Shown here: positions 37,106-50,155 of the stretch, piece after piece
Layout: every line of letters begins with the position of its first letter
How positions within the stretch are numbered: the stretch's first letter is position 1
From: a virus
Lineage: Duplodnaviria > Heunggongvirae > Uroviricota > Caudoviricetes
Length of the DNA stretch: 50,155 nt
Reading direction: 5' to 3' (one strand)
Virus record (IMG/VR): IMGVR_UViG_2870479586_000004
Notes under the pieces: generated by a model
What the model was told of the DNA's origin: nothing
The model's input: only the letters and a program-made list of their open reading frames with translations
Database searches by the model: none
Program-made: the position numbers and the translations under genes

Positions 37106-38447
37106 TCAATCTTTTTTATCGGGATCAGGCTTCTTTTTAGGTAACTTCGGGGGCTTAACTTGCTGATGACTTTGCGTTCGGCGCGTAAGCCAGGGATGGT
37201 CAGCTTTAGGTTTAACATAGTATTTTGAGCGTAAATCAATACGGGCATTATCCACTCGTTCATGGACACTCTTTTCATCATCCAGTGGTATAGGCTCCGG
37301 GCCATCAACATACTTTTCCCAGCCCAGCGCTTTCCCGTCATACAGAACGTTAATTTCACCGTCAAAGTTCTCGCATACAGTAACAACCGAATGCCTAAGT
37401 CGATATCCCCGGCCCTCACTGCGTACCTGAAACGCACTGCTTTTGTACTGGAAAGTGAGATTTTTAGACAGAACGCGCTTCGCCTGTAGGCTGAAGATAT
37501 AACCCAGTTCCTCTTCAGAATGGTGCACATCAAGATGAGCATTATCAGTAGTACGAGGCGACGTAGCGAACCGGTTGTTATAGGCTTCAATAAAGGTCGG
37601 CAACCATGCATTTGCTGTTTCAATATCACTGATATTCTGAAGCCGCATTTCTTTGACCAGCCTGTCCTGTAGTGTCTGATTGGCGCGCTCTACCCGCCCT
37701 TTTGCCTGCGGGCTGTTGGCATGGATTGGCTCGATGCCCAGTGTCTTTATCGCACGAGTGAACTGGGTCAGCTCACCTTCCCGCTCTGGGTTATTTACCC
37801 TGAATATACTGTGTCTATCAGAGTAGAGAGCGAGCGGTACGCCATGATCATTAAGGTAACCCCGGAGGGTTTCCATGTAAGCCCGGGTTGTTTCAGCAGG
37901 CACAAAACGCAACGCCATCAACGCACTGGTGGTATCATCAATGAAAACGATCAGTGTACATCTGGGGCCTCGATTTTCAAACCAGTCATGAGGTGAGCCA
38001 TCAATCTGGATCAGTTCACCGTAAGAGGGTCGTCGCATGCGGCGTTGATATATACGGGCAATTTTACGACGGCGTTCACGCCATACCCCCCTCTTCTATC
38101 ATCCACTTTCTGAGAGTTTCAACGGATAAAGATAAACCGTGTATCTCGCGCAATTTTTCGCACGCAAACGTAGGTCCAAAATCAGCGTAACGGCCTTTGA
38201 GGAGTGAAATTACTGTTGCTCTGAATTCAGTAGAAAAGGAATTATTAGGACGCTTTCCACGTCGGTGGGAAACCAGACCAGAAGGCCCTTCATTTCTATA
38301 CCGTTGCACCAGACGTTTAACCTGCCGAATAGAAATGCCAATGCGTGCCGCAGCTTGTTCCTGAGTAATATGTCGATTAATTGACTCCTGAATAATCTGA
38401 AGTCGGTGGAGTTCCTTATGACTCATCGTAACAGTTTCTTTGGTCAT
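37106..38447 (-). pseudogene. DDE transposase (IS481/ISNCY-like) split into orfA (38076-38447) and orfB (37106-38038) at a C6 homopolymer (38086-38091)
   Basis: orfA has an HTH (ARIGISIRQVKRLVQRY); orfB has an rve core (IQIDGS...FIDDTTS...SPQAKGRVERANQTLQDRL); removing one base fuses them into about 446 codons; a -1 shift would not reach orfB. Confidence 0.7.
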
Positions 38448-38594
38448 GAAAAATCCCCCAGAGAATTGTCTGGGGACATTTTAGAATGGTTCAAAGGGGA
38501 CATTACAGCTTGGTGTTAACAATAGCCTGCTTCTCCTGTGTAAGTTCACAGAGATATTGCAATTGCCTCCGGATAAGTAAGGGGAGATTGCACT

Positions 38595-39683
38595 ATGCAA
38601 ATGCAGCATCTGATGGTTGGCTATCCTAAGTACTACCAAACGGCCGATTATGCGTTGAGGCTTTCAGTGATGGCTGATATAGCAACAATGAGAATGAAGG
38701 CTCTGCACTTCTGGGATAAACACGGTATTTCTGCAGCTTCTGAAGCCTTTGGCGTGTCCTGCCGCACGCTTTACTGGTGGCGTCAGTTACTGAACAAGGA
38801 AGGACCTGAGGGGCTAATCCCGCACAGTAAGGCACCTCTGGTGCGACGAAAAAAACACTGGCATCCCGATGTGCTGAAAGAGATTCGACGCCTCAGGACA
38901 GAGCTGCCGAACCTCGGTAAAGAGCAGATTTTTGTTCGCCTGAAGCCCTGGTGCGAACAGCGCTATCTGGCCTGTCCGAGTGTTTCCACCATCGGCAGAA
39001 TGATCGCTGCCGCACATGATAAAATGCGGATGATACCTGTGCGTCTGGGATCGCGGGGGAAGGCACTGCTTGTCAAAAAGCGGTCTGCCAAACCCCGCAG
39101 GCCAAAGCACTACCGCCCGGTAAAGACAGGTGAGCTCATTGGGATGGACGCCATTGAGCTCAGAATGGGCGAACTGCGTCGCTATGTCATCACCATGATC
39201 GACGAATGCAGCAATTACGCGCTGGCACTGGCTGTGCCGTCACTCAACAGTGATATCGTCAATCACTTCTTCAGCCGCGCAGCCCGGTTGTTCCCGGTCG
39301 GTATCAGCCAGATAATCACAGATAACGGAAAAGAGTTCCTGGGAAACTTCGACAAAACGCTGCAGGAAGCCGCTATCAAACACCTCTGGACCTATCCCTA
39401 CACGCCAAAAATGAACGCTATCTGTGAACGTTTTAACCGGACGTTAAGAGAGCAGTTTATTGAATTTAATGAGATTTTACTCTTTGAAGATCTGGCGCTA
39501 TTTAACCAGAAGCTGGCGGAATATCTGGTGCTGTATAACAGCAAAAGACCCCACAAGGCGCTCGCACTAATGACGCCCGTGGAATATATTTTAAAAGAGA
39601 ATAAAAATTGCAATATGTGGTGGACCCATACATCTCCTTGCCTTTCGGCACGTAAGAGGCTAACCTACATGTGTCTGGCATGA
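38595..39683 (+). CDS. DDE transposase, rve family (IS481-like), 362 aa
   Basis: N-terminal HTH (FGVSCRTLYWWRQ), rve core (GMDAIEL...ITDNGKEF...NAICERFNRTLRE). Confidence 0.75.
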   Translation: MQMQHLMVGYPKYYQTADYALRLSVMADIATMRMKALHFWDKHGISAASEAFGVSCRTLYWWRQLLNKEGPEGLIPHSKAPLVRRKKHWHPDVLKEIRRLRTELPNLGKEQIFVRLKPWCEQRYLACPSVSTIGRMIAAAHDKMRMIPVRLGSRGKALLVKKRSAKPRRPKHYRPVKTGELIGMDAIELRMGELRRYVITMIDECSNYALALAVPSLNSDIVNHFFSRAARLFPVGISQIITDNGKEFLGNFDKTLQEAAIKHLWTYPYTPKMNAICERFNRTLREQFIEFNEILLFEDLALFNQKLAEYLVLYNSKRPHKALALMTPVEYILKENKNCNMWWTHTSPCLSARKRLTYMCLA

Positions 39684-43722: not shown

Positions 43723-43736
43723 TTGAGTTTTCTCAA
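43723..43736. promoter_or_regulatory. palindromic operator-like site TTGAGTTTTCTCAA in the dicC/dicA divergent control region
   Basis: Perfect 14-bp palindrome between the divergent repressor genes; near-identical copy at 44258-44270. Confidence 0.5.
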
Positions 43737-43786
43737 TGCTAATCACTCAAGGAATCTCAAGTCAAGGGTTATTAAGATATCTAAAT

Positions 43787-44193
43787 ATGAACGAGAAAAC
43801 TTTAGGTCAACGCATTAGAGAAAGACGTAAGCAGGTAGGCTTAAGTCAAAACGGTTTAAGCAAAGCTGCTGGCGTATCTGGCTCATCAATTTCATTATGG
43901 GAAAGTGACCATACAGCCCCGCGCGGGCAAAATTTGCATCGCCTCGCCGAGGTATTGCAATGTTCACCAACCTGGATACTGTTTGGCGACGAGGACAAAA
44001 CACCAGCTCCCCTGTTTCACTCGATAGTGCCTTAGACTTATCGGAAGATGAGTTAGAGATGCTGCGTTTGTATCGCGCACTTCCTAAATCAGAGCAACAA
44101 GCACAACTCAGCGAACTCCGCGCCCGCGTTGAGAATTTTAATCGCCTGTTCACCGAGCTATTAGAGGCTCGCAAACGCAACAAGCATCAATAA
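43787..44193 (+). pseudogene. dicA: CI-like XRE-family HTH repressor (DicA-like), frame broken by an apparent 1-nt deletion in the C4 run at 44009-44012
   Basis: 43787-44035 encodes the HTH domain (...VLQCSPTWILFGDEDKTPAP); 43960-44193 encodes the C-terminal part (...EDELEMLRLYRALPKSEQQAQLSELRARVENFNRLFTELLEARKRNKHQ); 407 nt versus 408 for 135 codons plus stop. Confidence 0.75.
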
Positions 44194-44385: not shown

Positions 44386-44541
44386 ATGGATACTATCGAT
44401 CTTGGCAACAACGAATCTCTGGTGTACGGCGTGTTTCCAAACCAGGACGGCACGTTCACCGCAATGACGTATACCAAAAGCCAAACGTTTAAAACCGAAA
44501 ATGGTGCCCGTCGCTGGCTGGAAAGAAACTCAGGTGAGTGA
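44386..44541 (+). CDS. ydfA: YdfA-like small protein, 51 aa
   Basis: Internal ATG 44386: MDTIDLGNNESLVYGVFPNQDGTFTAMTYTKSQTFKTENGARRWLERNSGE. Confidence 0.7.
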   Translation: MDTIDLGNNESLVYGVFPNQDGTFTAMTYTKSQTFKTENGARRWLERNSGE

Positions 44542-44542
44542 T

Positions 44543-45118
44543 ATGGATTTCGACACAATCATGGAAAAGGCTTACGAAGAATACTTCGAAGGCCTTGCCG
44601 AAGGCGAAGAAGCTCTCAGCTTCAGTGAGTTTAAACAGGCACTCAGAATAAGAATGTGCTCTCACAATGACGCGGAGCACAAATATGAGAAGCAAAATCA
44701 GACCGCAGAAAATTTTGTTCTGGAACCCGGAGAAACGCTTTTCAAAATTCCCGTTACGTGCCCCATTTGCGGTTTTACATCAGAAGAACTTGACGACTCC
44801 TGTAACAATCAGGAAACAACCAAGTATGTCGAAGATGATACCGAGTGCGCACGAAGAACGATTATATCCACAAGTCCAAACTCCAGGACCAATAAATCTC
44901 ACTTTGAGAGGGTGATTAATCCACTCCCCCAAACCAATAAAAAAGATGCCGGAGGACAAAAAACCCAATGGAACAACGGGATATCTGTCAAAAAAAGACG
45001 TTCCATTAAAGACAAACAACGCAGCGCCAACAACTGTAAGCGCTTTATACCAGTAATCAATTTTCATGTTCTTAAGCGGATTTATTGGTGGTTGCGACAT
45101 TGCTTAATGAATCCTTAA
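44543..45118 (+). CDS. YdfB/YdfC-like protein as one continuous 191-aa ORF with a CxxC motif
   Basis: ATG 44543 two nt after the ydfA stop; MDFDTIMEKAYEEYFEGLAEGEE...VTCPICGF... Confidence 0.55.
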   Translation: MDFDTIMEKAYEEYFEGLAEGEEALSFSEFKQALRIRMCSHNDAEHKYEKQNQTAENFVLEPGETLFKIPVTCPICGFTSEELDDSCNNQETTKYVEDDTECARRTIISTSPNSRTNKSHFERVINPLPQTNKKDAGGQKTQWNNGISVKKRRSIKDKQRSANNCKRFIPVINFHVLKRIYWWLRHCLMNP

Positions 45119-45377
45119 AACTGTGGTGATTTTAAGGATACCACCTCGCCTGACGTGGTTAAAAGCAGGCACACAACACGAAAGCGCACGGCGAAGTTCG
45201 TCTCACTGTACGGTGTCGTTAAATTTAATTCGACCGTGCGCTTCCGGTTGTGGCAACCCGCAAAATGGCGCGGCGGTAAGTATGGCGGGGTTATTCCTTC
45301 CCCGTTGAGGACACCGAGTTGTCAGGTTGACCATACGCTTAAGTGACAACCCCGCTGCAACGCCCTCTGTTATCAAT

Positions 45378-45435
45378 TTTCTGGTGACGTTTGGCGGTAT
45401 CAGTTTTACTCCGTGACTGCTCTGCCGCCGTTTTT
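45378..45435 (+). ncRNA. dicF: DicF small RNA (ftsZ-targeting antisense sRNA) within the dicB operon
   Basis: TTTCTGGTGACGTTTGGCGGTATCAGTTTTACTCCGTGACTGCTCTGCCGCCG followed by TTTTT matches recalled DicF almost exactly; upstream of dicB. Confidence 0.8.
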
Positions 45436-45604: not shown

Positions 45605-45793
45605 ATGAAAACGTTATTACCAAACGTTAATACGTCTGAAGGTTGTTTTGAAATTGGTGTCACTATCAGTAATCCTGTATTTACTGAAGAGGCCATTAAC
45701 AAAAGAAAACACGAACGGGAGTTATTAAATAAAGTATGCATTGTTTCAATGCTGGCTCGTTTACGTCTGATGCCAAAAGGATGTGCACAATGA
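45605..45793 (+). CDS. dicB: cell-division inhibitor DicB, 62 aa
   Basis: Internal ATG 45605: MKTLLPNVNTSEGCFEIGVTISNPVFTEEAINKRKHERELLNKVCIVSMLARLRLMPKGCAQ. Confidence 0.9.
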   Translation: MKTLLPNVNTSEGCFEIGVTISNPVFTEEAINKRKHERELLNKVCIVSMLARLRLMPKGCAQ

Positions 45794-45981
45794 ATTCAGC
45801 ATTTGCGCTTGTTCTGACAGTTTTTCTTGTTTCCGGAGAGCCAGTTGATATTGCAGTCAGTGTTCACAGGACAATGCAGGAGTGTATGACTGCAGCAACC
45901 GAACAGAAAATTCCCGGTAACTGTTACCCGGTCGATAAAGTTATTCACCAGGATAATAACGAAATCCCGGCAGGATTTTAA
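45790..45981 (+). CDS. ydfD: YdfD small membrane lysis protein, 63 aa
   Basis: ATG 45790 overlapping the dicB stop: MNSAFALVLTVFLVSGEPVDIAVSVHRTMQECMTAATEQKIPGNCYPVDKVIHQDNNEIPAGF. Confidence 0.8.
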   Translation: MNSAFALVLTVFLVSGEPVDIAVSVHRTMQECMTAATEQKIPGNCYPVDKVIHQDNNEIPAGF

Positions 45982-46074: not shown

Positions 46075-48516
46075 ATGAGCACTGATAAAGAAGAATTTGC
46101 ACTATATTGCGAAGCAAAAAATGACAAAGTAAGAAAACGCCTGGGAATTAAAGGTGGTTTTTACTGGACTACAGCAAAAAAATTATCTGTTGCAATCTCC
46201 CGCTGCATTACCGCAATGGATGACAACGATTATGATGAAGACGACTTTAAAAAACCCGTCCGCGTCAATTTGCCCGTTGTTGACGACCTTCCGCCAGAAG
46301 GCGTGTTTGATACTGAATTCTGCAACCGCTATGAAAAAGGCGGGAAAGATGGCATCACAATGACATTTATCGGCCCTTCCCCCTCTGTTCAGGACAAATC
46401 AGCCAGCACTGATAATACCAACATCAACGGCGAAGACATGACTGAGATTGAGGAGAGCATGCTTCTACCTGTCTCCGGTCAGGAACTGCCCATTCGTTGG
46501 CTTGCTCAACACGGCAGCGAAAAACCAGTAACGCACATTTCACGCGACGAACTCCAGGCATTACACATTGCACGGGCTGAAGAACTACCGGCTGTTACTG
46601 CCCTGGCTATTTCGCATAAAACCAGTCTGCTCGACTCGCTGGAGATTCGCGACCTCCACAAACTGGTTCGTGACACTGACAAAGTTTTCCCTAATCCTGG
46701 TAATTCAGACCTGGGACTAATAACTGCTTTTTTCGAAGCATACCTGGACGCTGACTACACTGATCGGGGTCTGCTGACAAAAGAGTGGATGAAAGGAAAT
46801 CGTGTTTCACGCATCACCCGCACGGCTTCCGGTGCTAATGCTGGCGGTGGGAACAAAACCGATCGCAATCCGAATTTAGTACACACCCTCGACACACTGG
46901 ATGTGGAGATTGCAGCAGCCACACTTCCGATGGATTTTAATATTTATGAAATTCCGGGCAGCGTTTATCGTCGCGCAAAAGAAGTAGTCCTGAAAAAAGA
47001 AAGTCCGTTCAAAGAATGGTCCGCAGCACTTCGTGCAACCCCGGGTATTCTGGACTATTCCCGCGCCGCTATTTTTGCACTTATCCGAAGCGTACACCCT
47101 GAATTTTATCACTACCCGGGACGCCTTCAGGGGTATATCAACGCCTATTTGACGGAAACTGATCACGAGAACCCCAGCAAGGAAACTCTCACAGCTGCCC
47201 GGCATACGCCGGAAAAAGATATCCTGGAAGAAATTAACCGCGAGGTGGTTACTGAGCGTGAAACAGAAGAAGAAAAACCACAACCATCTGACGCAATGGC
47301 AGGTGAACAGGCAACAACTGAAACAATGGAACCGGATACAACTGAACATTGCCAGAACGCGCAGTCGCTGGATGCTCAGTCGCAGGTGAGTTCCGCTAAC
47401 CAAGTAAAAGTCACCGCTGACGAAGTAAACAAAATTATGCAGGCAGCCAATATCAGCCAGCCTGACGCCGATAAGTTACTTGCTGTATCGCGTGGTGAAT
47501 TTGTTGAGGGGATTAGCGACCCTAATGATCCGAAATGGGTCAAGGGGATCCAGACTCGCGATTCTGTGAACCAGAACCAGCAAGAAACGGAACAGAACGA
47601 CCAGAAAGCGGAACAAAACAGCCCAAATACGCAACAAAACGAGCCAGAAACGAAACAACCTGAACCAGTAGTGCAACAGGAACCGGAAAAGATCTGCACC
47701 GCCTGCGGTCATAGCGGTGGCGGCAACTGCCCTGATTGTGGTGCGGTGATGGGTGACGCAACATACCAGGAAATATTCGATGGAGAGAATCAGCCTGAAG
47801 TTCAGGAAAATGATCCGGAGGAAATGGAAGGCACTGCGCATCAGCACAAGGAGAACACTGGCGGCAATCAGCATCATGCCAGCGATAGTGAAACTGGCGA
47901 GGCGTCAGATCCCTTAATTAAGGCGAACGGTCATCATAATCTCACATCCACCAGCAGAGCGGGGATTCATCTGATGATCGACCTTGAAACCATGGGAAAA
48001 AATCCCGATGCCCCGATTATCTCAATAGGTGCAATATTTTTCGATCCGCAAACCGGAGATATGGGACCGGAATTTAGTAAGACTATCGATCTGGAAACTG
48101 CTGGCGGAGTCATTGATCGGGACACCATTAAATGGTGGCTTAAACAATCACGCGAAGCGCAATCTGCCATTATGACCGATGAAATCCCGTTAGATGATGC
48201 ACTGTTACAATTGCGGGAATTTATCGACGAAAACTCCGGTGAATTTTTTGTTCATGTCTGGGGAAATGGAGCCAACTTCGACAACACGATTTTGCGCCGC
48301 TCATACGAACGGCAGGGGATCCCCTGCCCGTGGCGTTACTACAACGATCGCGATGTACGCACAATCGTTGAGCTGGGGAAAGCCATAGACTTCGATGCCA
48401 GAACGGCTATTCCATTCGAAGGTGAGCGCCATAATGCACTTGATGACGCCCGTTACCAGGCAAAATACGTTTCAGCTATCTGGCAAAAACTGATCCCGAG
48501 TCAGGCTGATTCTTAA
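46075..48516 (+). CDS. ydfE: large prophage protein (YdfE-like), 813 aa: N-terminal domain, acidic/Gln-rich linker, CxxC...CxxC zinc ribbon, C-terminal DnaQ-like DEDDh 3'-5' exonuclease domain
   Basis: C-terminal motifs MIDLETMG, HVWGNGANFDNTIL, HNALDDARY typical of DEDDh exonucleases; zinc ribbon CTACGH...CPDCG; intact single ORF. Confidence 0.7.
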   Translation: MSTDKEEFALYCEAKNDKVRKRLGIKGGFYWTTAKKLSVAISRCITAMDDNDYDEDDFKKPVRVNLPVVDDLPPEGVFDTEFCNRYEKGGKDGITMTFIGPSPSVQDKSASTDNTNINGEDMTEIEESMLLPVSGQELPIRWLAQHGSEKPVTHISRDELQALHIARAEELPAVTALAISHKTSLLDSLEIRDLHKLVRDTDKVFPNPGNSDLGLITAFFEAYLDADYTDRGLLTKEWMKGNRVSRITRTASGANAGGGNKTDRNPNLVHTLDTLDVEIAAATLPMDFNIYEIPGSVYRRAKEVVLKKESPFKEWSAALRATPGILDYSRAAIFALIRSVHPEFYHYPGRLQGYINAYLTETDHENPSKETLTAARHTPEKDILEEINREVVTERETEEEKPQPSDAMAGEQATTETMEPDTTEHCQNAQSLDAQSQVSSANQVKVTADEVNKIMQAANISQPDADKLLAVSRGEFVEGISDPNDPKWVKGIQTRDSVNQNQQETEQNDQKAEQNSPNTQQNEPETKQPEPVVQQEPEKICTACGHSGGGNCPDCGAVMGDATYQEIFDGENQPEVQENDPEEMEGTAHQHKENTGGNQHHASDSETGEASDPLIKANGHHNLTSTSRAGIHLMIDLETMGKNPDAPIISIGAIFFDPQTGDMGPEFSKTIDLETAGGVIDRDTIKWWLKQSREAQSAIMTDEIPLDDALLQLREFIDENSGEFFVHVWGNGANFDNTILRRSYERQGIPCPWRYYNDRDVRTIVELGKAIDFDARTAIPFEGERHNALDDARYQAKYVSAIWQKLIPSQADS

Positions 48517-48588
48517 TGTTCAACTGTCGCCGGTTGTGACTGGTATTCTGCAACCGGCGCTCGTCTGATGTAAGAGATAAAGAAATCG

Positions 48589-48840
48589 ATGAGCGAAGTA
48601 ATCATGATTGTCTCTCCCGGCAAATGGGTATCCGAAGAGCAGTTAATTGCGCTGAAAGGAATAAAAAAAGGTACGTTAAAAAAGGCCCGGGAAAAATCGT
48701 TTATGGAAGGAAGGGAATATAAGCATGTCGCTCATGACGGTATGCCATGGGATAACAGTCCATGCTTTTACAACCTGGAAGAAATTGATCGCTGGATTGA
48801 GCGCCAGGCATCAGCAAGACCAAGACGTCATCTTACTTGA
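48589..48840 (+). CDS. xis: excisionase-like small DNA-binding protein, 83 aa
   Basis: Small basic ORF immediately upstream of the integrase in the same orientation. Confidence 0.6.
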   Translation: MSEVIMIVSPGKWVSEEQLIALKGIKKGTLKKAREKSFMEGREYKHVAHDGMPWDNSPCFYNLEEIDRWIERQASARPRRHLT

Positions 48841-48874: not shown

Positions 48875-50155
48875 ATGAAATATCCGACAGGCGTGGAAAA
48901 CCATGGAGGGAAATTACGTATCTGGTTTGTTTATAAAGGCGTAAGAGTCAGGGAAAACCTGGGGGTTCCTGACACAGCAAAAAACAGGCGCGTTGCAGGT
49001 GAGCTACGCGCCTCTGTTTGTTACGCAATAAAAACTGGTGTTTTCGACTATGCAAAACAGTTTCCCTCCTCACGCAATCTGGAAAAATTTGGTGAGGCCC
49101 GACAAGATTTAACCATAAAAGAACTGGCTGAAAAATTTCTGGCACTGAAAGAAACTGAAGTCGCCAAAACATCACTCAACACATACCGTGCCGTCATCAA
49201 AAATATCCTGAGCATAATCGGTGAAAAAAATCTTGCCTCATCGATTAATAAAGAAAAATTACTGGAGGTTCGTAAAGAGCTACTGACTGGATACCAGATC
49301 CCCAAAAGTAACTATATTGTTACACAACCAGGGAGATCGGCTGTAACTGTAAATAATTACATGACAAATCTTAACGCCGTGTTCCAGTTTGGTGTTGATA
49401 ACGGTTACCTGCCAGATAATCCGTTTAAGGGGATCTCGCCATTAAAGGAATCAAGAACCATTCCGGATCCTCTTTCGCGGGAGGAATTTATCCGTCTTAT
49501 CGATGCGTGCAGAAATCAGCAAGCAAAAAATTTATGGTGTGTTTCTGTTTATACTGGCGTTCGCCCTGGTGAGCTGTGTGCACTTGGATGGGAGGACATA
49601 GATCTGAAAAATGGAACAATGATGATCAGGAGAAATTTAGCAAAAGACCGTTTCACGGTACCAAAAACACAGGCGGGAACCAATCGGGTCATTCATCTTA
49701 TTAAGCCAGCAATCGACGCTCTCCGGAGTCAGATGACATTAACGAGACTGAGCAAAGAGCATATCATTGATGTTCACCTCAGAGAGTATGGCAGAACAGA
49801 AAAACAAAAATGCACCTTTGTTTTTCAACCTGAAGTGTCAGCGAGAGTAAAAAATTATGGTGACCATTTTACCGTTGACTCAATAAGGCAGATGTGGGAC
49901 GCAGCGATAAAACGTGCCGGACTCCGCCATCGAAAATCATATCAGTCGAGACATACTTATGCCTGCTGGTCGCTGACAGCTGGTGCTAACCCGGCATTTA
50001 TAGCAAACCAGATGGGCCATGCAGATGCGCAAATGGTATTTCAGGTATACGGAAAATGGATGTCTGAAAACAATAATGCACAGGTAGCTTTGTTAAATAC
50101 ACAGTTAAGCGAGTTTGCCCCAACCATGTCCCATAACGAAGCAATGAAAAATTAA
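48875..50155 (+). CDS. intQ: tyrosine-type phage integrase, about 426 aa, stop at window end
   Basis: MKYPTGVENHGGKLRIWF... N-terminal arm-binding region; catalytic region with RHRKSYQSRHTYA and conserved Tyr context; ORF-track alternative start at 48860. Confidence 0.85.
   Translation: MKYPTGVENHGGKLRIWFVYKGVRVRENLGVPDTAKNRRVAGELRASVCYAIKTGVFDYAKQFPSSRNLEKFGEARQDLTIKELAEKFLALKETEVAKTSLNTYRAVIKNILSIIGEKNLASSINKEKLLEVRKELLTGYQIPKSNYIVTQPGRSAVTVNNYMTNLNAVFQFGVDNGYLPDNPFKGISPLKESRTIPDPLSREEFIRLIDACRNQQAKNLWCVSVYTGVRPGELCALGWEDIDLKNGTMMIRRNLAKDRFTVPKTQAGTNRVIHLIKPAIDALRSQMTLTRLSKEHIIDVHLREYGRTEKQKCTFVFQPEVSARVKNYGDHFTVDSIRQMWDAAIKRAGLRHRKSYQSRHTYACWSLTAGANPAFIANQMGHADAQMVFQVYGKWMSENNNAQVALLNTQLSEFAPTMSHNEAMKN

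Follow-up and report, generated by a model that had tools for sequence, protein, structure and literature searches.

In the Rac prophage of Escherichia coli K-12, the slot of the early-left operon that precedes the excisionase and integrase genes (xis-int) carries recE and recT, an exonuclease and annealase pair that has become a workhorse of recombineering. Which enzyme occupies this slot in a Qin-type prophage, and does it perform the same task? We examined this question for an 813-amino acid (aa) open reading frame (ORF; 46075-48516, plus strand, ATG start) of the IMG/VR virus record IMGVR_UViG_2870479586_000004 (Caudoviricetes), whose full length of 50,155 nucleotides is called the window below. 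The analysis points to a protein that joins a RecE-like N-terminal region, here termed the platform, to a C-terminal exonuclease domain, or head, of a family unrelated to the nuclease of RecE, and that is encoded with no annealase gene after it. An earlier note on this DNA had reported a single 813-aa ORF with an N-terminal domain, an acidic Gln/Glu-rich linker, a CxxC...CxxC zinc ribbon and a C-terminal exonuclease; the ORF list gives the complete frame at exactly these coordinates, and the order of the parts proved correct by Pfam, composition and an AlphaFold2 (AF2) model.

A frame of 813 codons is far beyond chance expectation and represents a real gene. The identical protein was recorded from 332 contigs and at least 80% of the gene is held by 1245 of 5426 complete E. 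coli genomes (about a quarter), so that it cannot be regarded as a chance frame; it is among the most widespread uncharacterised enzymes of E. coli prophages. A GAGG Shine-Dalgarno-like motif lies ~10 nucleotides 5' of the ORF, and RefSeq labels the identical gene 'exonuclease' or '3'-5' exonuclease'.

The head (aa 632-803) matched the Rv2179c-like Pfam family PF16473 with an E-value of 4.6e-67 (225.6 bits against a cut-off of 27), covering model positions 2-177 of 177, i.e. the family match to Mycobacterium tuberculosis Rv2179c extends across the whole domain. Rv2179c is a stand-alone bacterial exoribonuclease. In an alignment of 47 sequences, comprising the ORF and 46 stand-alone homologues at about 40-53% identity, the catalytic residues D636, E638, D736 and H786 were invariant and D791 was at least 90% conserved. 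All five align to the same residues in T4 DexA (exonuclease A), whose structures 8KEL and 8KEN were the sole significant PDB sequence matches of the ORF (E 7e-6). The AF2 model of the whole protein has a predicted local distance difference test score (pLDDT) of about 90 over aa 630-810, and Foldseek returned DexA, then RNase T, then Orn/REXO2 as best matches of the head (probability 1.00, target-normalised template modelling (TM) scores of 0.6-0.76), in agreement with an RNase H-like alpha/beta fold. The comparison with DexA itself gave a structural E-value of 1.5e-7, a target-normalised TM score of 0.64-0.72 and an identity of about 27%. DexA is thus the best PDB match by both sequence and structure, sharing the DEDDh fold and the catalytic residues; in contrast to the ORF, it is a stand-alone protein of 227 aa from a virulent phage, with extra loops and no RecE platform.

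Every sequence and fold feature that we compared places the predicted head in the DEDDh/Rv2179c-like family, and the 3'-5' activity expected of it follows from that family. The DnaQ-like 3'-5' exonuclease domain that the earlier note had put at the C-terminus is therefore upheld by the PF16473 match and by five intact catalytic residues. The note had also named two results that would speak against it, namely loss of the catalytic Asp/Glu/His residues on alignment and homology to a non-nuclease family; the residues were kept in both the 47-sequence and the DexA alignments, and the family matched is a nuclease family. Compared with two alleles at 95-98% identity, the ratio of nonsynonymous to synonymous substitution rates (dN/dS) was 0.15-0.23 in the head, from small counts, and purifying selection appears to act on this domain.

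The remainder of the protein has a different ancestry, which was absent from the earlier note: its N-terminal 615 aa are RecE-like. Using BLASTP with the K-12 RecE sequence from NC_000913, aa 58-615 of the ORF aligned with aa 49-590 of RecE at 58% identity, including the zinc ribbon and the peptide GISDPNDPKW, and nothing aligned beyond this point. Exonuc_VIII (PF06630) was found at aa 57-189 (E 5e-36, 124.9 bits against a cut-off of 25), and the NCBIfam RecE equivalog NF007259 aligned from aa 1-616 of the ORF to model positions 1-603 of 877, scoring 932.1 bits against a cut-off of 1269. The RecE-type PD-(D/E)XK domain DUF3799 was not found in the ORF by Pfam, and a phmmer search with RecE aa 600-866 gave no match to it. 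Because the similarity to RecE ends where the PD-(D/E)XK nuclease of RecE begins, the predicted protein is a head swap on a RecE platform, with a DEDDh 3'-5' head instead of a PD-(D/E)XK 5'-3' nuclease. With both the score and the nuclease domain of RecE lacking, it also lies outside the RecE equivalog family as judged by homology, which makes the name 'exodeoxyribonuclease VIII' misleading. In short, the ORF shares with RecE (exodeoxyribonuclease VIII of Rac) the Exonuc_VIII region, the GISDPNDPKW peptide, the Cys4 ribbon, the acidic linker and the operon slot, whereas the C-terminal PD-(D/E)XK 5'-3' double-stranded DNA exonuclease of RecE (3H4R) is replaced by an unrelated DEDDh head and no recT follows.

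The platform consists of three domains (N1 to N3), for which the AF2 pLDDT exceeded 90 across most of aa 1-100, 120-250 and 258-390. A separate model of aa 1-395 (pLDDT 87.6) gave no significant fold match in the PDB (best E 1.6) or in the viral BFVD (best E 0.17), and a family profile search found no solved relative for the platform region. The linker that follows (aa ~399-630) is rich in Asp, Glu and Gln and poor in Lys and Arg, and is predicted to be disordered at aa 399-446, 491-537 and 561-626, where the pLDDT falls below 50. Most allelic differences cluster in it, and its dN/dS of 0.64-0.71, likewise from small counts and the same two alleles, is higher than that of the head.

To place the ORF within its family, it was scanned together with 53 long representatives at 50% identity, giving 54 sequences, or 55 when K-12 RecE was added. 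Pfam assigned Exonuc_VIII to 47 of the 54, a DEDDh head to 17, DUF3799 to 16 and a RecT remnant to one, and the local phmmer cross-tabulation agreed with the Pfam head counts and separated a further head type in two sequences (P0138 and P0213). About a dozen sequences end in short tails with no recognised head, and DEDDh-headed relatives were found down to 36-44% identity. The family is a mosaic. Two elements within the linker were also followed through the 55 sequences. The motif G[IV]SDP.D.[KE]W was present in 29 of them, irrespective of head type, and we infer that the LLAVSRGEFVEGISDPNDPKW motif is likely a partner-binding peptide. The Cys4 ribbon, although also found in K-12 RecE, occurs in only 8 of the 55, and can therefore be considered an optional module.

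Several members of the family deserve a separate mention. P0138 and P0213 (loci L017 and L018, 4001-6445) carry on a RecE-type platform a third head of about 270 aa ('...LWKDVFKTDERFT..NGGGTSINGTYMTMIATREFG...'), for which no Pfam family was found and PHROGs gave only an uninformative 'exonuclease' label; the next gene encodes a Sipho_Gp157 protein and is followed by xis-int. This third head may be annealase-like. In P0126 (703 aa), a RecE platform passes in frame, within the zinc ribbon, into the C-terminal portion of RecT, as if a deletion had fused recE to recT in a Rac-like prophage. P0124, P0146, P0156, P0236 and P0253 have a platform without a nuclease head and end in a short conserved hydrophobic tail ('...QQLTLAALQGLCANPA...').

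The ORF had been called 'YdfE-like', a description that holds for its position in the locus and fails for similarity to the K-12 ydfE product: the 306-aa protein encoded by K-12 ydfE (b1577) has no detectable similarity to the ORF (BLASTP, best E 4.1). The explanation was provided by P0123, an 823-aa allele retrieved in a search of 1.84 billion representative proteins. Residues 1-256 of K-12 YdfE are 98.8% identical to aa 1-256 of P0123, and aa 245-822 of P0123 are 67% identical to aa 270-812 of the ORF, with heads at least 75% identical, whereas the first ~245-270 residues of P0123 are YdfE-type and unrelated to the RecE-type N1-N2 of the ORF. P0123 occupies the same place, after dicB-ydfD and before xis-int, and a gene of its length fills this slot in the viable phages mEp460 and HannyBb. 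By alignment, intact YdfE and the ORF represent two alleles of the same locus, having N3, linker and head in common and unrelated N-termini, and the homology of the ORF to intact YdfE covers, by the same comparison, only the part lost from K-12. The statement in the earlier note that K-12 retains only a fragment of ydfE was accurate, as ydfE is a pseudogene cut by IS2E. Pfam YdfE_C (PF27432) has faint precomputed matches inside the distant DEDDh-headed relatives L006 and L014; it was not reported for the ORF at E up to 1 in the Pfam copy searched.

We then considered whether the gene, given its platform, could be a RecE equivalent, i.e. the nuclease member of an exonuclease-annealase recombinase serving phage recombination. 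Gene by gene, the locus corresponds to K-12 Qin (dicA-like repressor, ydfA, ydfB, DicF, dicB, ydfD, the ORF, xis, int), the ORF being the last gene of the dicF-dicB-ydfD early-left operon directly before xis-int. The comparison with Rac agrees with the pL-operon slot proposed previously, and such a role would also fit the 615 aa in common with RecE. A third point in its favour is that the stand-alone head homologue encoded by gene 29 of the P22-like Salmonella phage g341c (182 aa, 56% identity) lies in a recombination module, between ssb and abc2 and just downstream of erf, which ties the head to phage DNA-end metabolism; gene 29 is, like the ORF, an early-left operon gene, although it lacks the platform. 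The annealase, however, is missing. The earlier note had proposed to look for a partner beyond the window, but xis and int follow inside it and, in the genome with a 100% identical copy (L001), the host gene rspB comes next after int. In the window and in 8 related loci (L001, mEp460, HannyBb, E. coli 042, phage 640R1, L006, L014 and L015) the DEDDh-headed gene is followed directly by xis-int with no annealase gene. E. coli 042 has a different int and attachment (att) site, and L006, L014 and L015 are distant relatives at 38-49% identity. In contrast, recT comes after the PD-(D/E)XK-headed gene in both cases examined, Rac recE and L016. No RecT/Erf/Red-beta-type gene was present in the RefSeq annotation of the complete prophage carrying the identical copy, and no annealase was found in Pfam scans of ten other window ORFs; together with the ORF list and the RefSeq annotation of related prophages, these define the material in which the annealase is absent. 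Moreover, the polarity of the head family is opposite to that of all known recombinase exonucleases. With no annealase and a polarity opposite to that required, a RecET-type role is distinctly unlikely.

We instead consider it probable that the gene encodes a modular early-lytic protein, in which a RecE-type platform delivers a two-metal 3'-5' exonuclease of the DexA/Rv2179c type to where it acts, without an annealase partner. Most likely, the protein actively degrades 3' ends while the RecE platform tethers it, an activity suggested by the intact catalytic residues and the predicted fold. The gene would be transcribed with dicF-dicB-ydfD from the early-left promoter when a Qin-type prophage is derepressed, and the platform would carry the protein to whatever the platform of RecE binds, either DNA ends or a host factor. 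The head would then strip nucleotides singly from free 3' ends by two-metal catalysis, using D636, E638, D736 and D791 with H786 as general base, and in phage DNA metabolism the exonuclease would serve by itself to trim or erase 3' ends rather than as half of a RecET-type pair.

Several points weigh against this proposal. The searches of the PDB, the BFVD and the family profile gave the platform no relative of known function by structure or sequence, so that nothing but the shared architecture stands behind its proposed targeting role. A 3'-5' nuclease leaves 5' tails, and no known phage recombination pathway uses 5' tails. The dN/dS values of the head are based on just 11 substitutions. The contexts of other stand-alone homologues are heterogeneous: some lie beside YfdQ and an HD phosphohydrolase, some beside a ligase or an integrase, and some among hypothetical genes alone. 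Across seven phages, g341c included, the surroundings were too varied or too poorly annotated to define a conserved partner. Activity, substrate or phenotype data for the 813-aa protein were not found in the searchable literature. Finally, PF16473 takes its name from an exoribonuclease, and the substrate may accordingly be RNA.

This last point can be extended into a reading in which RNA is the target and the head shortens or breaks down transcripts of the host or of the operon. No family fits the head better than PF16473, its leading structural matches include RNase T and Orn, and the operon produces a processed small RNA (sRNA), DicF. On the other hand, the closest solved structure and sole PDB sequence match is a DNA exonuclease, the platform is common with the DNA nuclease RecE, and the g341c homologue is located among DNA recombination genes. 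DNA is the more probable substrate, and we regard an RNA role as rather improbable.

The relationship to DexA raises another possibility, that of a prophage-borne defence or exclusion nuclease destroying incoming modified phage DNA. Expression of the neighbouring gene dicB gives phage resistance, which favours such a role. EcD ('HREX'), a DexA-like DEDDh exonuclease encoded in E. coli as a stand-alone DexA homologue, is reported to protect against T4 and to digest 5-hydroxymethylcytosine (5hmC) DNA (Kang et al. 2025, PMC12153337), and the head of the ORF is a relative of DexA. EcD is nevertheless a different, stand-alone protein starting with MIDTET, and the residues that Kang et al. link to 5hmC recognition are not kept in the ORF, where DexA W152 corresponds to Y756 and D169 to A770. 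Conversely, the tetramer residue D90, absent in EcD, is retained as D708 according to an approximate loop alignment. Lysogens normally keep the early-lytic operon that contains the gene repressed, PADLOC gave no match, and no promoter-like site was present on the plus strand directly upstream, although this last is weak evidence. A defence function is consequently unlikely. As candidate annotations, HREX-type specificity was rejected because equivalents of W152 and D169 are absent in the DexA alignment, and membership in a defence system was rejected on the PADLOC result.

The opposite role, an anti-defence nuclease that removes immune molecules with free 3' ends (retron multicopy single-stranded DNA (msDNA), complementary DNA (cDNA) of defence-associated reverse transcriptases (DRT) or linear oligonucleotide signals), seems no more probable to us than a defence function and is likewise improbable. 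It would suit an early-expressed phage gene without a recombination partner, the fast diversification of the linker, the mosaic build of the gene and the oligonucleotide-degrading DEDDh relatives Orn and REXO2. However, selection on the head is purifying and not diversifying, such a role would give no reason for the elaborate RecE platform, and a literature link was not found.

Finally, the gene is very unlikely to be a functionless relic decaying within a cryptic prophage. Signs of decay do exist in the vicinity, as the neighbouring repressor gene is frameshifted, ydfB/ydfC is rearranged and the K-12 allele is a pseudogene. Against this, hundreds of genomes, and viable phages as well, carry the 813-codon frame without interruption, the catalytic residues are preserved and the dN/dS of the head is well below 1.

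The tethered-exonuclease reading bears on RecE itself. Full-length RecE and its isolated nuclease domain behave differently. What the 560-600 N-terminal residues of RecE do has yet to be explained (PMC11611040), and the main value of the ORF is that it provides a natural handle on this region. The platform bears a nuclease of opposite polarity about equally often (17 versus 16 of 54), and then without an annealase, which indicates a separable module with a task independent of 5'-3' resection and of RecT. What the platform binds could be revealed by this natural experiment, through comparison of different heads on a common platform or of different platforms with a common head. A broader and rather doubtful extension is that the N-terminal region of RecE may be a general targeting platform with interchangeable heads (5'-3' PD-(D/E)XK, 3'-5' DEDDh and at least one further type). 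The DEDDh form would then be a non-recombinase, a stand-alone '3'-tail eraser' at DNA ends that blocks host processes dependent on 3' tails (RecA loading, RecBCD/Chi products) or destroys DNA-based immune molecules, to the advantage of the phage.

Public databases already contain the sequence, its Pfam architecture and a generic 'exonuclease' label; a paper describing the head swap, the allelic relation to ydfE or the function of the 813-aa protein was not found in the literature. Database labels are inconsistent, with 'exodeoxyribonuclease VIII', 'exonuclease' and '3'-5' exoribonuclease' all in use, and the first implies the wrong catalytic domain. The bacterial 'DexA homologues' described in PMC12153337 come mostly from Escherichia, Citrobacter and Klebsiella, and that paper never mentions prophages. 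Many of them may be prophage genes of the family to which the ORF belongs; if true, their reading as host defence genes changes.

Table 1 Features of the exonuclease gene and its surroundings (window coordinates).
Feature	Position	Strand	Basis
DicF sRNA	45379..45430	+	Rfam RF00039, 72.5 bits
dicB and ydfD, immediately upstream, same orientation	45605..45981	+	Translations; RefSeq of identical locus (L001 8531-8907, shift +37074)
RecE-type platform with predicted DEDDh 3'-5' exonuclease, 813 aa	46075..48516	+	ORF list, Pfam, NCBIfam, BLASTP
N1, alpha/beta domain, aa 1-100	46075..46374	+	AF2 pLDDT 84-98
N2, helical domain, aa ~116-250, overlapping PF06630	46420..46824	+	Pfam, AF2; nearly identical to K-12 RecE
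N3, helical domain, aa ~258-398, common to RecE and the YdfE-type allele	46846..47268	+	AF2 pLDDT 82-98
Disordered acidic linker, Gln/Glu-rich, aa 399-630	47269..47964	+	Composition; AF2 pLDDT <50
Conserved short motif LLAVSRGEFVEGISDPNDPKW, aa 468-488	47476..47538	+	Family alignment
Cys4 zinc ribbon, C541-x2-C544-x7-C552-x2-C555	47695..47739	+	Sequence; AF2 pLDDT about 75
Predicted DEDDh 3'-5' exonuclease domain, aa 632-803	47968..48483	+	Pfam Rv2179c-like PF16473
Exo motif I, D636-L-E638	47980..47988	+	Invariant in 47-sequence and T4 DexA alignments
Exo motif II, catalytic D736 (NFD)	48280..48282	+	Invariant in 47-sequence and T4 DexA alignments
Exo motif III, H786-x4-D791 (HNALDD)	48430..48447	+	47-sequence and T4 DexA alignments
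Stable hairpin directly after the stop codon, no U-tract	48529..48558	+	RNA fold against shuffles
Excisionase	48589-48840	+	ORF list, RefSeq
Tyrosine integrase	48875-50155	+	ORF list, RefSeq

A scan for promoters and terminators around the exonuclease gene gave results no better than shuffled sequence. Between its stop codon and xis there is a hairpin with a 9-bp G+C-rich stem (CGCCGGUUG...CAACCGGCG); the 86-nucleotide stretch that contains it (48510-48595) folds with -27.1 kcal/mol (z -2.9 against shuffles), and the hairpin may be an RNA processing or stability element affecting the expression of xis and int.

On the upstream side, a gene for an Rrf2-family regulator lies directly before the exonuclease gene in L006 (5533-5859), L014 (476-826) and L015 (3515-3859), at the place taken by dicB-ydfD in E. 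coli. The dicA-like repressor of the window (43736-44193, plus strand) is frameshifted into the overlapping ORFs 43736..44035 and 43960..44193, and in the genome that has the identical locus RefSeq also classes it as a pseudogene with a frameshift; dicB, the division inhibitor gene downstream of it, is intact. The region from ydfB to dicF (44501-45379) differs from K-12, ydfB continuing into a 205-aa ORF (44501..45118) and ydfC being absent, and an unannotated hydrophobic ORF of 106 aa is found on the minus strand (44780..45100; no Pfam match). Farther upstream, transposase genes (rve integrase core and helix-turn-helix) on both strands at 37106-39683, inside the prophage, indicate that it is interrupted by an insertion sequence (IS) element. 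In the TUM14759 prophage, which has the identical exonuclease gene, the region matching 37106-39683 contains a gene for a P-loop ATPase of the Sll1717 family.

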